Source of the DNA: Acidobacteriota bacterium
GTDB lineage: Bacteria > Acidobacteriota > Vicinamibacteria > Vicinamibacterales > JAHECP01
Assembly: GCA_024641665.1 (NCBI GenBank)
Contig: JAHECP010000010.1
Location: forward strand, 3,941 to 67,940
Direction: 5' to 3'
Length of the DNA: 64,000 nt
The position numbers and the translations under genes are program-made. This document shows, piece by piece, positions 35,858-40,750 of this stretch. The notes under the pieces were generated by a model. That model searched no databases. It was not told the origin of the DNA and was given only the letters and a program-made list of their open reading frames with translations. Each line of letters starts with the position of its first letter. Positions within the stretch are counted from its first letter, which is position 1.

Positions 35858-35892
35858 GGGGACTGGGGACTGGGGGCTGCGAACTGGGGGCC
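35858..35892. repeat. heptamer array GGGGACT GGGGACT GGGGGCT GCGAACT GGGGGCC
   Basis: Exact period 7, in the divergent spacer between actA and the nitroreductase gene. Confidence 0.7.
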
Positions 35893-35976
35893 GAGAGCTG
35901 TGAGCGAGGGAGTGGAGGGCGCGACGGAATGGGCTACGCAAGGGGCCCGGAAGCCCCACGTTAGAATGAGAGCCCC

Positions 35977-36663
35977 ATGGCCGCCGACGCCCGGTACCGG
36001 CCGACGCCCCTGCGCTTCGATCGGCTCCCGCCCGACGAACAGCGTGCCCGCGCGCGCGAGTTCCTGGCGCGCATGCGGACGCGTCGCAGCGTCCGGCAGT
36101 TCTCGGACGAGCCGGTCGACCCCGCGGTGATCGACGCGGCCGTCGCCACGGCCGCCTCGGCCCCGTCGGGCGCGAACCGGCAGCCCTGGCGGTTCGTGGT
36201 GGTGCGCGACCCCGAGGTGAAACGGCGGATCCGGGAAGCGGCCGAGGCCGAGGAGCGCGAGAGCTACGCGCACCGCATGCCCGACGAGTGGCTCGACGCG
36301 CTGGCGCCGCTCGGCACCGACTGGCACAAGCCCTTCCTCGAGATCGCGCCCTGCCTGATCGTGGTGTTCCGGATCGACTACGGCGTCGAGGCCGCGCCCG
36401 ACGGGAGCGAGCGGCACGTAAAGCACTACTACGTGTCGGAGTCGGTGGGCATCGCGTGCGGCTTCCTCCTCGCCGCGCTGCACTACGCGGGGCTCGCCAC
36501 GCTGACGCACACGCCGAGCCCGATGGGCTTCCTGGCCGACATCCTGGGCCGGCCGAAGAACGAGAAGCCGTACCTGCTCATCCCGGTCGGCTACCCCGCG
36601 CCGGATGCCGAGGTGCCGGACATCACGAAGAAGACGCTGGGGGAGGTGAAGATCGACATTTGA
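35977..36663 (+). CDS. nitroreductase-family protein
   Basis: 228 aa: [41 protein letters not shown]. Confidence 0.85.
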
Positions 36664-36664
36664 A

Positions 36665-36800
36665 ATGTCGAATGTCGAATGTCGAATGTCGAATGTCGAA
36701 TTCAAGGTCATCTGTCACGCCGGCGTTGCCGATCGCCGCCGGCGCGCCGTGATCGAGCGGTCTTCACTTCGACATTCAGCATTCGACATTCGGCATTCCC
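36665..36800. repeat. inverted heptamer arrays (ATGTCGA)x5 ... (TTCGACA-like)x5 around a GC-hairpin core
   Basis: Left arm 36665-36699, right arm 36761-36800. The core contains TGTCACGC (36713-36720) and the stem CACGCCGGCG/CGCCGGCG. Confidence 0.8.
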
Positions 36801-36812
36801 AGGATTCAGCCC

Positions 36813-37560: not shown

Positions 37561-37568
37561 ACACGATC

Positions 37569-38513
37569 ATGGACCATCCCACTCCCCGCTCTTCCTTCCG
37601 TTCCCCCCGGTTCGCCCAGCCGCCGACCTTCATGCGGTTGCCGCACCGGGAGGATCTCACCGGCGTGGACGTCGCGATCGTGGGCGTGCCGTACGACGGC
37701 GGGACGTCGTACCGGGTCGGGTCGCGGCACGGGCCGCGCGAGATCCGCAGCCAGTCGTCGCTCATCCGCACCTACAGCTACTTCCAGAAGGTGGCGCCGT
37801 TCGACCGGCTGACGGTGGTGGACGCGGGCGATCTCGACGTGCCGCCGGTGGGCAGCATCGAGCAGGCCTACGCCGCGATCGAGGCGGGCATCGCGCGGAT
37901 CCTGGCCGCCGGCGCGACGCCGATGGCCGTGGGAGGCGACCACTCGATCTCGCTGCCGATCCTCCGGGCCGTCACCCGGGCGCACGGGCCGGTCGGCCTC
38001 GTGCAGTTCGACTCGCACATCGACACGTGGCCCGAGTACTTCGGCGGGAAGTACTTCCACGGCTCACCGTTCTACTGGGCGGTGGAGGAGGGGCTGGTAG
38101 ACCCCGCGCGCTTCGTGCAGGTGGGCATCCGCGGGCCGGGCTACGGCGACGACGACTTCGACTTCCACCGCCGGCGCGGCATGACGGTGGTGCTGATCGA
38201 CCAGGTGAAGGCCGAGGGCGTGGACCGGACGATCGAGGCCGTGCGCCGCGTGCTTGACGGTCCGACCTATGTCAGCTTCGACATCGACGCGGTGGACCCC
38301 GCGTTCGCGCCCGGCACCGGCACGCCGGAGGTGGGCGGCCTGACCAGCCACGAGGCGCAGCGCCTGGTGCGCGGTCTGGGCGGTCTGCCCATCGTCGGGT
38401 GCGACCTGGTGGAGGTGTCGCCGCAGTACGACGGCCCGGGGCAGATCACCGCGCTGCTGGCCGCCAACCTGCTGTTCGAGATGCTGTGCGTCATCGCACG
38501 CGGACGCGGGTGA
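37569..38513 (+). CDS. speB: agmatinase (arginase/ureohydrolase family)
   Basis: ATG at 37569, because upstream of it the track ORF reads through the repeat array. Contains [28 protein letters not shown] and DSHIDTW Mn-binding motifs. Confidence 0.9.
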
Positions 38514-38697
38514 CGGATCAGCGGTCAGCGGTCAGGGCGGCCCAGCAGTCAGCCGTCAGGGGGCAGGGGTCAGGAAGAGCACTCTTGGACGGCGTCACGG
38601 CGTGACAGCGTGACACGCTCTTCCTGACCGCTGACTGCTGACCGCTGACTGCTGACCCCTGACCGCTGACGGCTGACCCCTGACGGCTGACCCCTGG
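38511..38697. repeat. inverted heptamer arrays (TCAGCGG-like)x9 ... (GACCGCT/GACTGCT/GACCCCT)x10 around a hairpin core
   Basis: Core stem is AGGAAGAGC (38572-38580) with GCTCTTCCT (38617-38625). It encloses GTCACGGCGTGAC and two copies of GCGTGACA. Confidence 0.85.
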
Positions 38698-38737
38698 CGC
38701 AGCTCGACGGTATAGAATGCCGCCGAGAGGTCTTCCC

Positions 38738-40621
38738 ATGAGACGCGTGGTCCGCTTCCGGGTCGGGTTGGTGCTGGCCCTCGTGCTCGCCGGCGCGGTG
38801 TCGGCGGTGGCGCAGGCGCCGATCGTGTACAAGGTGACGGTGCCCGAGCCGCAGCACCGGTGGCTGCAGGTCGAGGCGACCTTCCCGGACATCGGCCGCG
38901 CGCCGCTGCACCTGCAGATGAGCCGCTCGTCGCCGGGACGCTACGCGCTGCACGAGTTCGCGAAGAACCTGTTCGAGATCAAGGCGTACGACGGCAAGGG
39001 GCTGGAGCTGGCGCTGCTGCGCCTGACGCCGTCGGAGTGGAGCGTCTCGGGCCACGACGGCACGGTGCGCGTGGTCTACAAGCTGTACGGCGACCGGATC
39101 GACGGCACCTACCTCGCCGTGGACACGACGCACGAGCACCTGAACATGCCTGCCACGTTCATGTGGGCGCGCGGGCTCGAGGACCGGCCGATCCGGGTGC
39201 AGTTCGCCCCGTCCAACCCGGCGTGGAAGGTGGCGACGCAGCTGTTCCCGACCTCCGACCCGATGGTGTTCACCGCGCCGAACCTCCAGTACTTCATGGA
39301 CAGCCCGACCGAGGTCGGGCCCGTGTCGATTCGCACCTTCACCCTGGCCAACCCGGACGGCCGGCGGTTCGAGTTCCGCGTGGCGCTGCACCACGACGGC
39401 TCCGACGCCGACGTGGACGACTACGCGGCGAACGTCGAGAAGATCGTGCGCGAGGAGCAGGCGGTCTACGGCGAGTTCCCGGACTACGACACGGGCACCT
39501 ACACGGTGATCGCCGACTACCTGCCCTATTCGGACGGCGACGGCATGGAGCACCGCAACAGCACGATCGTGACCTCGCGGCTCTCGATTGCGGACCCGCA
39601 GCAGCGCATGCGCGCGCTCGGCACGGTGGCGCACGAGTTCTTCCACTGTTGGAACGTCGAGCGCATCCGGCCGGCCGGCCTCGAGCCGTTCGACTTCACC
39701 CGCGCCAACATGTCGGACGGTCTCTGGCTCGCCGAGGGCTTCACGCAGTACTACGGCGGCCTGATCCTGGCGCGCGCCGGCCTCGTCGACGTGAACCGGG
39801 CCGCGTCGGGCTTCGGCCGCTCGGTGAACGCCGTCGTGAACGGCTCGGGGCGCCTGTTCCGCTCGGCGGCCGAGATGAGCCGTCTGGCGCCCTTCGTGGA
39901 CGCCGCACGCGCGGTGGACCGAACGGACCTCCAGACCACGTTCATCTCGTACTACACCTGGGGCGCGGCGATCGCGCTCGGCCTCGACCTCTCGCTCCGC
40001 GAGATGAGCGGCGGCAAGCTCTCCCTCGACGACTACATGCGCGCGCTGTGGCGCGTGCACGGCAAGCCCGGCGGTCCCGCGCCCGGCCTGGTGGCGAAGC
40101 CCTACACGCTGCGCGACGCGCGCGACCGGCTGGCCGAGGTGTCGGGCAGCCGCTCGTTCGCCAACGACTTCTTCGACCACTACGTCGAGGGACGCGACGT
40201 GCCGGACTACGCGACGTTCGTCGAGCCGGCCGGGCTCGTCGTGCGCAAGCGCAACGCCGGCGCGGCGTGGATGGGCCAGTTCGGCGTCGAAGCGGCCGGC
40301 CAGGGCGTGGGCATCACGACGCTCGTCCCGCCCGGCACGCCCGCCTACGCCGCCGGCCTCGAGCAGGACGACATCATCAGGAGCCTGGACGGGGACGCGG
40401 TGAGCTCACCCGCGCGGCTGCAGGAGATCCTCAAGCGTCACAAACCCGGCGACGAGATCAAAGTGGAGTTCGTCCGGCGCAGCGGGCCCGTCAGCGCCAC
40501 GATCGCCCTCGTCGAGGATCCGTTGCTCGAGATCGTCACCCTCGAGTCCACCGGCGGCACGCCCACCGACGCCCAGAAGGCGTTCCGCACGGCGTGGCTC
40601 GGCACGCATCAGCGACAGTAG
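38738..40621 (+). CDS. M61-family glycyl aminopeptidase with a C-terminal PDZ domain
   Basis: HExxH motif (VAHEFFHCWNVERIRP), signal peptide (VLALVLAGAVSAVAQA) and a PDZ-like segment (GLEQDDIIRSLDGDAV). ATG 38738 follows GAGAGG. ATG 38717 is an alternative start. Confidence 0.85.
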   Translation: MRRVVRFRVGLVLALVLAGAVSAVAQAPIVYKVTVPEPQHRWLQVEATFPDIGRAPLHLQMSRSSPGRYALHEFAKNLFEIKAYDGKGLELALLRLTPSEWSVSGHDGTVRVVYKLYGDRIDGTYLAVDTTHEHLNMPATFMWARGLEDRPIRVQFAPSNPAWKVATQLFPTSDPMVFTAPNLQYFMDSPTEVGPVSIRTFTLANPDGRRFEFRVALHHDGSDADVDDYAANVEKIVREEQAVYGEFPDYDTGTYTVIADYLPYSDGDGMEHRNSTIVTSRLSIADPQQRMRALGTVAHEFFHCWNVERIRPAGLEPFDFTRANMSDGLWLAEGFTQYYGGLILARAGLVDVNRAASGFGRSVNAVVNGSGRLFRSAAEMSRLAPFVDAARAVDRTDLQTTFISYYTWGAAIALGLDLSLREMSGGKLSLDDYMRALWRVHGKPGGPAPGLVAKPYTLRDARDRLAEVSGSRSFANDFFDHYVEGRDVPDYATFVEPAGLVVRKRNAGAAWMGQFGVEAAGQGVGITTLVPPGTPAYAAGLEQDDIIRSLDGDAVSSPARLQEILKRHKPGDEIKVEFVRRSGPVSATIALVEDPLLEIVTLESTGGTPTDAQKAFRTAWLGTHQRQ

Positions 40622-40750
40622 CCGAATGTCGAATGGCGAATGTCGAATGCTGAATGTCGAATGGTGAGCCGGAGGCCGGAGGCCAGGTGCCGGAGGCCTG
40701 AGAACCTGAGAACCTGAGAACCTGAGAACCCGAGAACCCGAGAACCCCCG
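40621..40750. repeat. three abutting heptamer families: (TGTCGAA)x6, (CCGGAGG)x4, (CTGAGAA/CCGAGAA)x7
   Basis: Read directly from the sequence between the M61 stop (40619-40621) and fumC. Exact period 7 throughout. Confidence 0.85.

Follow-up and report, generated by a model that had tools for sequence, protein, structure and literature searches.

Heptanucleotide tandem arrays at gene 3' ends in Vicinamibacterales, and inverted pairs among them that may act as RNA stem-loops

What are the short tandem arrays that fill consecutive spacers of this DNA, and do they serve the genes beside them? The window, by which we mean the whole stretch of 64 kb analysed here, comes from a soil acidobacterium of the order Vicinamibacterales (phylum Acidobacteriota). 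This order ranks with the most abundant bacteria of soils and, to our knowledge, little is known about gene regulation in it. A first-pass annotation, made from the sequence alone, had described arrays with an exact period of seven nucleotides, some of them inverted around a small core, and this description proved essentially right, with corrections to the exactness of the arrays, to one unit that is 8 nt long and to their coding status. We tentatively interpret the arrays, at a probability of roughly 0.45, as slippage-born heptamer repeats at the transcribed 3' ends of genes, the paired ones acting as RNA stem-loops.

Heptamer arrays and inverted-array hairpins in the window

Arrays were called by Tandem Repeats Finder (TRF) on the whole window, together with a lag-7 scan and direct reading of 35.7-40.9 kb. 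A looser lag-7 detector found 10 arrays, where 100 dinucleotide-preserving shuffles gave 0.51 on average and 3 at most. Under a strict self-match detector, period 7, along with its double of 14, exceeded every other period from 4 to 15. TRF returned period-7 rows at 11 sites, the units running head to tail. The arrays cluster at 29.7-41 kb and again at 51 kb, while about 20 other spacers of the window are array-free. Both TRF and direct reading found the arrays where they had been described, but the word "exact" suits only one of them, the AATGTCG array at 36664-36701, the remainder having 65-97% matches. As the units measure 7 nt and abut directly, whereas CRISPR repeats would be 23-50 nt long with unique spacers of similar length between them, the earlier statement that this is not a CRISPR array was upheld.

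Three spacers each fold into one long hairpin of 130-190 nt, with z-scores against shuffles of -5.75 (hairpin A), -3.94 (hairpin B) and -9.21 (hairpin C). An inverted-repeat search of the window found the arms to be 73-90% complementary, and each of the three cores contains TGTCACGC or GCGTGACA (at 36713, 37473 and 38600/38608). Thus the proposals that the arrays of three spacers are reverse complements of each other, and that a common sequence or its complement lies between the arms, were both borne out. The parts of the hairpins are as follows.

36664-36701, plus strand: hairpin A, arm 1, perfect (AATGTCG)x5.4 (TRF, 100% matches), directly 3' of the nitroreductase stop codon (36661-36663)
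36702-36767, plus strand: hairpin A, core, with TGTCACGC at 36713 plus an inner GC-rich stem
36768-36798, plus strand: hairpin A, arm 2, (TTCGACA/TTCAGCA/TTCGGCA)x4.4 (TRF, 79% matches), 86-90% complementary
37428-37463, plus strand: hairpin B, arm 1, (GTCGAATGCTGAAG)x2.6, a 14-nt double unit (TRF, period 14, 95%)
37464-37486, plus strand: hairpin B, core, with TGTCACGC at 37473
37487-37559, plus strand: hairpin B, arm 2, about 10 TTCGACA/TTCGGCA units (TRF, 10.6 copies, 71%, 8% indels)
38518-38573, plus strand: hairpin C, arm 1, about 8 GGTCAGC/GGTCAGG units (TRF unit TCAGCGG, 7.6 copies, 73%)
38574-38623, plus strand: hairpin C, core, a GGAAGAGC...GCTCTTCC stem around CGTCACGGCGTGACAGCGTGACACGC (sequence reading and fold)
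38624-38696, plus strand: hairpin C, arm 2, 10.4 CTGAC(C/T/G)(G/C) units (TRF unit CTGACCG, 80%)

In hairpin A, arm 2 stops 14 nt short of the start codon of the thioredoxin-like gene (36813); in hairpin B it stops 9 nt short of the agmatinase start (37569). The first unit of hairpin B arm 1 supplies the last four codons of the thioredoxin-like gene together with its stop codon (TGA, 37437-37439), and hairpin C arm 1 begins 4 nt past the agmatinase stop codon (38511-38513). In the core of hairpin C the GCTCTTCC stem half is conserved in the closest relative (L001; agmatinase protein 97% identical, coding DNA 87-93%, or about 89%, identical to the window), the other half being divergent there. 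A conserved TATAGAAT box (38711-38718) lies past arm 2 of this hairpin, upstream of the M61 peptidase gene.

Pfam assigned the plus-strand genes to a nitroreductase, a thioredoxin-like protein, an arginase-family protein (agmatinase), an M61 peptidase with a PDZ domain and a fumarase-like lyase. On the minus strand lies a cluster that encodes Alternative Complex III (ActA-D), and the arrays at 30.3 and 31.7 kb are for this reason intercistronic within a respiratory operon. The arrays of the window outside the hairpins are listed below.

30303-30344, minus strand: (TGAGCCN)x4, filling the 42-nt ActC (NrfD)/ActD junction (TRF period 7 at 30316-30344)
31728-31811, minus strand: ActB/ActC intercistronic insertion of about 80 nt (TRF 31728-31755 and 31791-31806)
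35858-35889, plus strand: imperfect (GGGGACT)x4.6 (TRF, 76% matches), in the divergent spacer between an ActA-like cytochrome gene and the nitroreductase gene
40623-40663, plus strand: direct array (CGAATGN)x5.9, unit CGAATGT (TRF), 2 nt past the M61 stop codon
40668-40702, plus strand: direct array (GCCGGAG)x5 (TRF)
40697-40754, plus strand: direct array of an 8-nt unit, CCTGAGAA x4 then CCCGAGAA x2 (TRF 40697-40746, period 8, 97%)
51030-51091, plus strand: (AGTCCCC)x5 then (CCGGCCT)x4.3 (TRF, 96% and 91%), in frame in a CopA-like open reading frame (ORF)

The ActC stop codon falls in the last unit of the array at 30303-30344, and L001 has at this junction an array with a different unit, AGGCACG. 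The 31.7 kb insertion consists of (TGAGCCN)x4 beside the ActC start, a short core and (TGAGCCC)x2 after the ActB stop; the TRF arrays at both junctions agree with the earlier claim that they share TGAGCCN. The GGGGACT array at 35858-35889 is G-quadruplex-capable, and L001 carries a 12-nt repeat (CCACGGAAATNG) in its place. CCCCAGT/ACTGGGG had been reported from 29.7, 35.9 and 51.0 kb; the latter two positions hold arrays, but at 29.7 kb there are isolated CCCCAGT units and no array. The array at 40623-40663 has no inverted partner and is absent from that site in L001, while the GCCGGAG family at 40668-40702 is the reverse complement of that at 51062-51091; a unit common to 40.67 and 51.06 kb had been proposed at first pass. 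The next array, first read as (CTGAGAA)x7, is present, although its period is 8 nt and not 7. Its unit places it in a GAACC(N1-3) family, and a promoter scan found a promoter-like site downstream of it at 40775-40803, ahead of the fumarase-like gene. Over 40.6-40.75 kb the direct arrays are less stably folded than their shuffled counterparts (z = +2.5). The arrays had first been called non-coding, and this is true of most, but 51030-51091 is in frame in the CopA-like ORF and the array at 37428 overlaps a gene end. A search of the whole window against Rfam 15 gave no family match at the gathering score and only sub-threshold hairpin matches to microRNA (miRNA) families, and tRNAs, searched for alongside, were not found.

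Distribution in the lineage and turnover between relatives

The agmatinase gene was used as a search query and returned 80 loci, the best 43 of which were almost all metagenome-assembled genomes (MAGs) of Vicinamibacterales or Acidobacteriota. The lineage set comprised 46 related Vicinamibacterales loci (857 kb in total), and the control set 508 kb of loci from the same search, mostly Proteobacteria. TRF found 6.4 arrays of period 7 and 5.1 of period 14 per 100 kb in the lineage set, against 0 and 1.6 in the controls. A strict lag scan of the 46 loci gave 64 period-7 arrays, one being an artefact of a run of N, and 1-14 arrays for each of the other periods from 4 to 15 except 14. Positional statistics were drawn from a crude gene map based on GC content at third codon positions (GC3), in which stop codons are exact and start codons approximate; on this map 73% of the array bases of the strict scan lay in the approximately 21% of sequence called intergenic. 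The looser detector gave 112 period-7 arrays in 33 of the 46 loci, with a median of 5.3 units, and none in the controls. A scan for an intergenic excess of period 7, which the first-pass annotation had proposed, thus found a strong excess among related loci. Since the arrays fall into about 70 canonical 7-mer unit families, it is the period that is conserved and not the sequence. The units are somewhat AT-richer than the background and are enriched in CTGA/TCAG, AATC/GATT and CAG/CTG.

An inverted partner, defined as an opposite-strand array of the same unit no more than 250 nt away, was found for 42 of the 112 arrays (about 37%), against 2-4 in reversed or complement-only controls, giving about 26 hairpin elements. 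GTCACGC is present in six of the 26 hairpin loops (8 occurrences against 0.58 expected), and in 1665 nt of loop sequence there are 5 copies of TGTCACGC where 0.05 would be expected, in both cases in the window, L001, L028, L030 and L034; TGTCACGC also adjoins (CACAGAG)n arrays in L024 and L028. Both the inverted arrangement and the core therefore recur in related loci outside the window, which had been suggested as a test, although the core motif is recurrent and not universal among the hairpins.

Per 100 kb, Nanopore MAG loci have 11.9 arrays, loci of other assemblies 14.2 and the window 15.6, and array density varies strongly from genome to genome; the MFD MAGs, which account for many of the related loci, derive from deep Nanopore sequencing (PMC12313526). 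A Logan contig from a short-read assembly (L081, SRR12825371) is 100% identical to the window over 36672-40439, includes two of the hairpins and breaks off within the perfect ATGTCGA array. That break is what speaks for an assembly or sequencing artefact, as the copy number of perfect arrays could be mis-assembled. Against an artefact stand the complete identity of two assemblies over 3.8 kb, two hairpins included, the fact that 33 of 46 independent loci have arrays, Nanopore and short-read assemblies being equally dense in them, and the location of arrays at syntenic spacers with flanking ORFs intact. Because an independent contig agrees and Nanopore loci carry a similar density of arrays, we take an artefact to be excluded, at a negligible residual probability; the arrays persist in the Nanopore MAGs of relatives, so the concern raised at first pass that long-read assembly might remove them has been answered.

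Arrays of the GAACC(N1-3) family were seen in five genomes, partly at non-homologous sites (L010 18845-18966, L032 19099-19189, L019 7278-7366, L001 13067-13135 and window 40697-40754). A GAA(C/T)T(N)A array directly precedes the GAACC array in L010, L019 and L032, and L010 and L032 share this composite after an argininosuccinate-lyase-like gene.

When the window is compared with L001, coding DNA aligns and spacers do not. L001 has inverted heptamer arrays at all three of the hairpin spacers of the window. In the two spacers flanking the thioredoxin-like gene both arms are built from ATTGCCG/CGGCAAT in L001 and from AATGTCG/CGACATT in the window, and in the spacer of hairpin C the unit is common to the two, with about 12/4 copies in L001 and 8/10 in the window. 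In the former two spacers the bases that follow arm 1 (GAAAGGC..TCACGCTGC) are still recognisable between window and L001 over a short distance, and four paralogous or orthologous hairpins could be aligned only over some 30 nt past arm 1. At the hairpin spacers of L082, a metagenome relative further removed (69% amino-acid identity), there are direct arrays of yet other units. Seven arrays hold at least 4 perfect units, from which homogenisation appears to be recent and ongoing. At the strain level, the sole contig with an identical protein (L081) is 100% identical to the window, and a metagenome scan found nothing closer than 69% amino-acid identity. Judged from these sequence comparisons, the arrays undergo rapid birth, death and concerted evolution, far faster than the genes that flank them.

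The spacer 3' of agmatinase holds further kinds of repeat in relatives, namely ACGGAG and CACGAAG motifs at 8-11 nt spacing (arrays of about 9-10 nt) and CACAGAG heptamers, often inverted. Longer repeats, often likewise in inverted sets, are also found there, with about 8 copies of a unit of about 34 nt in L030 (11040-11300), a unit of about 34 nt in L037 (10945-11035) and a 19-nt unit in L019 (11000-11080); further repeat-filled spacers lie in L013 (10640-10960) and L014 (5240-5340). The repeat-filled spacers of this lineage are therefore not limited to period 7.

Coding sequence is affected as well. The thioredoxin-like ORF of L001 reads through four ATTGCCG units before its stop (L001 9820-9861, compared with window 37419-37439), so that its C-terminal tail is SIADWRLPIAD* in L001 and IVEC* in the window. 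The CopA-like P-type ATPase (50747-53314; by Pfam a YHS domain at 20-64, two HMBD domains and an E1-E2 ATPase) has arrays within its ORF at 50944-50959 and 51030-51091, the latter encoding a Pro/Ser-rich linker between YHS and HMBD. Disordered linkers in proteins seem to be a further product of the repeat process.

Gene 3' ends, RNA folding and competing explanations

The position of the arrays relative to genes was analysed across the lineage set. Among 56 arrays in co-directional spacers, 22 begin within 10 nt of the upstream stop codon or overlap it, and seven lie that near a start codon. There are 0.71 arrays per kb of co-directional spacer, 0.65 in convergent and 0.16 in divergent spacers, the last being four-fold poorer. 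This proximity to stop codons and the scarcity in divergent spacers together associate the arrays with gene 3' ends and transcribed DNA, and not with promoter-only DNA. Two arrays can be related to local sequence. The array at 37428 has for its first 14-nt unit the native sequence that ends the thioredoxin-like gene, GTCGAATGCTGA, and the GTCGAA part of this unit matches the ATCGTTGAA gene end of L082. At the ActB/ActC junction L001 is without the 31.7 kb array and reads TAGCCCATG, where the window has the (TGAGCCN)n insertion of about 80 nt.

At the RNA level, folding of whole hairpins was more sensitive than a count of arm mismatches: of 18 hairpins between co-directional genes, 13 have a sense strand that is more stable than its antisense counterpart (mean -4.1 kcal/mol, Wilcoxon p = 0.012). 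No such bias was displayed by 103 array-free spacers (52 against 51; Mann-Whitney p = 0.02). A constraint on the sense transcript is suggested by this difference, and suggested only. Among unpaired arrays there is a tendency for the sense strand to be the G-rich one (26 against 13, p = 0.053), which leaves a minor G-quadruplex possibility.

Other roles for the units were considered and rejected. In a triple-frame stop role, a stop codon within a 7-nt unit would close all three reading frames past a gene; of 35 stop-adjacent units, 10 contain a stop codon in sense orientation and 8 in antisense. Rho-utilisation (rut) sites were discarded on the G-rich, not C-rich, sense strand of the unpaired arrays (the same 26 against 13). 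A promoter role, with TGAC or TCGACA as -35 boxes, was discarded as a TAnAAT box lies no more than 40 nt downstream in only 3 of 73 arrays, and the promoter scan placed no promoter-like site within arrays. TAnAAT boxes themselves (TAGAAT, TATAGAAT, TACAAT) are found just 5' of start codons at 35953-35958, 38711-38718 and 40798-40803, conserved in L001, and in 19 of 694 genes such a box ends 0-9 nt ahead of the start codon. This placement suggests that leaderless mRNAs, or mRNAs with very short leaders, may be frequent in the lineage.

On the reading that we prefer, an array would start as a short duplication of local sequence at a gene 3' end or junction, and would grow and shrink by strand slippage in transcribed DNA. 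In the inverted class, which makes up about one third of arrays and has a small palindromic core often with GTCACGC, the whole spacer folds as a hairpin of 70-190 nt, and the arms and neighbouring copies would be kept alike by slippage with template switching or gene conversion between inverted or nearby repeats. These hairpins may well act in the sense transcript as stem-loops of the 3' untranslated region (UTR) or between cistrons. Their long double-stranded RNA would be a natural substrate of RNase III and a barrier to 3' exonucleases, and could uncouple the stability of neighbouring cistrons, much as do repetitive extragenic palindromic (REP) sequences, bacterial interspersed mosaic elements (BIMEs) and the heptamer hairpin of Haemophilus influenzae hmw1A. 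Unpaired arrays would represent partnerless raw material and may have no function.

Several observations tell against this reading. Slippage, template switching and RNase III cleavage are assigned to these arrays by analogy. Canonical intrinsic terminators numbered 0 in 35.5-41 kb against 1.9 expected in shuffles, no U-tract follows any hairpin, and a few hairpins lie in divergent spacers. The sense bias could stem from transcription-associated C-to-T mutation of the non-template strand and not from selection, and the count of G.U wobbles in the arms (23 sense, 14 antisense) does not differ significantly (p = 0.19). Transversions, of which there are 65 among 853 aligned arm positions, outnumber transitions, and pairing stands at about 86%. 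Some 63% of arrays lack a partner, and the single unpaired case that was folded gave a poorer result than shuffles. Furthermore, the equivalent spacers of distant relatives carry other repeats or nothing, which argues against a conserved gene-specific role.

The main rival retains the same origin by slippage and dispenses with function, the arrays being neutral debris in unconstrained DNA between a stop codon and the next promoter, with inverted pairs produced by template-switch errors and the sense bias by the C-to-T mutation just mentioned. This we consider possible but somewhat doubtful. It sits well with arrays being gained, lost and replaced at one spacer among relatives, where many orthologous spacers are array-free and 10-40 nt long, and likewise with imperfectly paired arms rich in transversions, an unpaired majority, the strong variation in density between genomes, and the invasion of the L001 thioredoxin tail and the CopA linker with the genes left unbroken. 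It fits poorly, however, with window and L001 agreeing in type, inverted or single, at each of the three hairpin spacers despite complete unit replacement, with both arms changing together, and with a sense-over-antisense stability bias that control spacers do not show; the enrichment of TGTCACGC in the cores is also hard to explain by drift alone. A bolder proposal takes the inverted arrays to be lineage-specific, self-renewing palindromic elements, in which both arms and their neighbours are rewritten in concert to a new 7-nt unit. We judge this unlikely; were it true, a transcription- or hairpin-dependent process, or a protein recognising GTCACGC(TGCGATCG), would drive the rewriting, and each genome would have its own "dialect" of 3'-UTR hairpins regulating mRNA processing across hundreds of genes.

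A protein also features in the idea that these are mobile or protein-serviced elements resembling REPs or MITEs (miniature transposable elements bounded by inverted repeats), the GTCACGC(TGCGATCG) core being the site of a REP-associated tyrosine transposase (RAYT) of the Y1 type, or of another nuclease or recombinase, that copies or homogenises elements between spacers. The recurrence of GTCACGC in five loci including the window, the TGTCACGCTGCGATCG copies beside (CACAGAG)n arrays in L024 and L028, unit families common to two or three neighbouring spacers of one genome and different between genomes, the GAACC arrays at non-homologous sites of five genomes, and the 31.7 kb array that looks inserted relative to L001 would all be accommodated in this way. 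About three quarters of hairpin cores are without GTCACGC, however, there is no genome-wide consensus among about 70 unit families with cores unalignable beyond about 30 nt, and array ends match local ancestral sequence instead of presenting foreign termini with target-site duplications. The 16-nt extended core TGTCACGCTGCGATCG, tried as a consensus at up to 4 mismatches, was rejected, with 193 matches against a mean of 136 for shuffled motifs, no enrichment over these and few close matches. We therefore hold such elements to be quite unlikely. Just as unlikely would be a role at the DNA level, with cruciforms, G-quadruplexes or i-motifs serving as sites or barriers for gyrase, nucleoid proteins, replication or recombination. 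Some units do have runs of three or four G (GGGGACT, GGGGCTN, GGGACCN), (GGGGACT)4 forms very stable G-quadruplexes in vitro (PMC4692102), unpaired arrays lean towards G on the sense (non-template) strand, and long near-perfect palindromes could extrude as cruciforms; yet many units are without G-runs, the dominant window families AATGTCG, CTGACCG and TGAGCCN among them, and a strand-asymmetric folding bias points to RNA over symmetric DNA. Finally, the arrays could be a platform for a protein that binds single-stranded nucleic acid and reads the 7-nt register through a constant contact of 4-5 nt per unit, for example cold-shock-type OB folds (one protein per heptamer; binding of cold-shock proteins to heptamers is discussed in PMC4679880) or a ring protein like HutP (NAG-N4 repeats). 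Variation within arrays is indeed concentrated by position (247 positions hit against 267.7 expected, p about 2e-4), several arrays combine a constant core with variable positions (CTGAC+NN, GGCTCA+N, GAACC+N1-3), and CTGA/TCAG occurs in 15 of 68 units against 3.4 expected. But the effect is small (8%), the variable positions are not significantly contiguous (p = 0.13), dozens of unrelated units share no motif in a fixed orientation, and stop codons and CTGA show no strand bias, and we regard a register-reading protein as very improbable.

Relation to known repeats and other features of the window

The arrays are heptanucleotide simple-sequence repeats, of the kind known as long simple-sequence repeats (LSSRs) or short tandemly repeated repetitive (STRR) sequences and of the inverted-pair kind, in a new phylum. 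They consist of tandem 7-nt units in at least about 4 copies, with an excess of period 7, a preference for non-coding DNA and instability between relatives, all as in heptanucleotide LSSRs. The proportion of arrays with an inverted partner (42 of 112, against 2-4 in controls), and the three hairpin spacers that are hairpins in L001 too, correspond to the Xanthomonas type. STRRs in the strict sense are defined for heterocystous cyanobacteria; the present host belongs to Vicinamibacterales, and CCCCAGT/GGGGACT is the only unit shared, most units being unrelated. REPs and BIMEs are intergenic or intercistronic imperfect palindromes, often in the 3' UTRs of operons, whose RNA stem-loops stabilise upstream mRNA; REPs have units of about 35 nt with a genome-wide consensus and are serviced by RAYT transposases. 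They are a functional analogue of the hairpin class, but the present hairpins are built of tandem heptamers of many sequences with no common consensus, as seen from the roughly 70 families, the weak alignment of cores and the presence of GTCACGC in only six of 26 loops. Nor are the arrays MITEs, which occur as many near-identical copies with terminal inverted repeats and target-site duplications; here copies have nothing in common beyond the unit family and a few bases that follow arm 1, and array ends merge into local ancestral sequence.

The first-pass annotation had implied that composite inverted-array elements were new to high-GC, non-cyanobacterial genomes. This is not borne out, since Rehm et al. 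(2015) described GGGAATC arrays in Xanthomonas (65% GC), with 70-75 close inverted pairs per genome, lengths that vary between species and preservation of the single or inverted type (PMC4692102), and a previously undescribed class of element is thus not supported. The likeness extends to high GC in a non-cyanobacterial host, non-coding 7-nt tandems, copy-number differences between species, a large proportion of close inverted pairs with the potential for stem-loops or cruciforms, and the preserved type. In contrast, Xanthomonas has one dominant, G-quadruplex-capable unit, found in the same context between species in 83% of cases, whereas the present lineage has about 70 families, most without G-runs, and here the unit is replaced in both arms between relatives of about 89% coding identity. 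Here the GTCACGC core is present in a subset of hairpins; the comparison with Xanthomonas covered units and pairing. Features that may go beyond published cases are the many unit families, the concerted replacement of both arms and of neighbours, the tight anchoring to stop codons and the GTCACGC core subset.

Heptamers of cyanobacteria (the GGGGA(C/T)T, or CCCCAGT, family of Calothrix and Nostoc, and the mixed heptamers of Microcystis) are likewise 7-nt tandems with several families per genome, mostly intergenic. The resemblance to STRRs proposed at first pass is documented, in that GGGGACT/CCCCAGT is a Nostoc heptamer repeat (PMC4692102); the GGGGACT/AGTCCCC unit is found at 35.86 and 51.03 kb in the window and in several relatives. 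The cyanobacteria, however, are another phylum with a GC content of 41% against 69% here, and of the GGGGA(C/T)T arrays of Nostoc only a few pairs are inverted (PMC4692102). In H. influenzae the (ATCTTTC)n array of hmw1A is transcribed, forms one arm of a long 5'-UTR hairpin and is cleaved by RNase III, and changes in repeat number need transcription, the hairpin and RNase III together (PMC12721329). It resembles the present hairpins as a transcribed heptamer array that is the arm of a long RNA hairpin, and it offers a supported route through RNase III processing. It differs from them in being a single phase-variable virulence locus, in a 5' UTR, whose right arm is a G-rich region and not an inverted array; in the present lineage, by extrapolation, each genome would have hundreds of such loci, most of them at the 3' ends of genes, and phase-variable genes are not in evidence. 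The TAACTGA repeats of marine Beggiatoaceae are intergenic direct heptamers of patchy distribution, sometimes mixed with other heptamers, but they have a single unit in 2-6 copies, mainly just upstream of starts, with 1 indirect repeat among 169 sets (PMC4679880). A literature search, within the library that could be searched, found no paper on such repeats in Vicinamibacterales or Acidobacteria.

A 2007 report, as cited in PMC4679880 and PMC4692102, found heptanucleotides to be the most abundant long simple-sequence repeats in many bacteria, and the reason proposed, as summarised in the same two papers, is that 7 nt corresponds to a polymerase contact or footprint that favours slippage. For the question of why 7 nt dominates, this lineage is a data-rich system, with many families, paired and unpaired arrays, anchoring at 3' ends and concerted replacement, and the link of transcription, hairpin and RNase III to repeat instability could be examined in it beyond one Haemophilus locus. 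If neutral, the arrays would still record a strong lineage-specific mutational process. In practical terms, arrays overlap stop codons, extend C-termini and sit in operons, so that awareness of them aids gene calling; perfect arrays can break short-read contigs; and arrays offer hypervariable markers for strain typing in metagenomes.

Other structures of the window were noted in passing. A near-perfect hairpin at 43448-43516 (AGAGAACGGAAAATGGGGTCAGACCCC...), with 27-nt arms that are 96% complementary and a 15-nt loop, gave only sub-threshold, miRNA-like Rfam matches and lies within a gene-free stretch of about 1 kb (43038-44106). Inverted repeats at 366-460 and 22448-22593 are not heptamer-based; one of them is a GC-rich hairpin (CGGGCCGGCTGGAGCCGGCCCC) repeated twice after a gene end, and the other a palindrome with 50-nt arms that are 80% complementary. 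Three tandem paralogous genes of about 960 aa each (3095-5968, 6326-9196 and 9588-12509) are separated by spacers of 350-470 nt without heptamer arrays, and the matching internal inverted repeats at 8776-8953 and 12089-12266 reflect their paralogy. A stretch of about 2.1 kb at 59168-61268, without a gene on the crude GC3-based map, may hold a gene of atypical composition.

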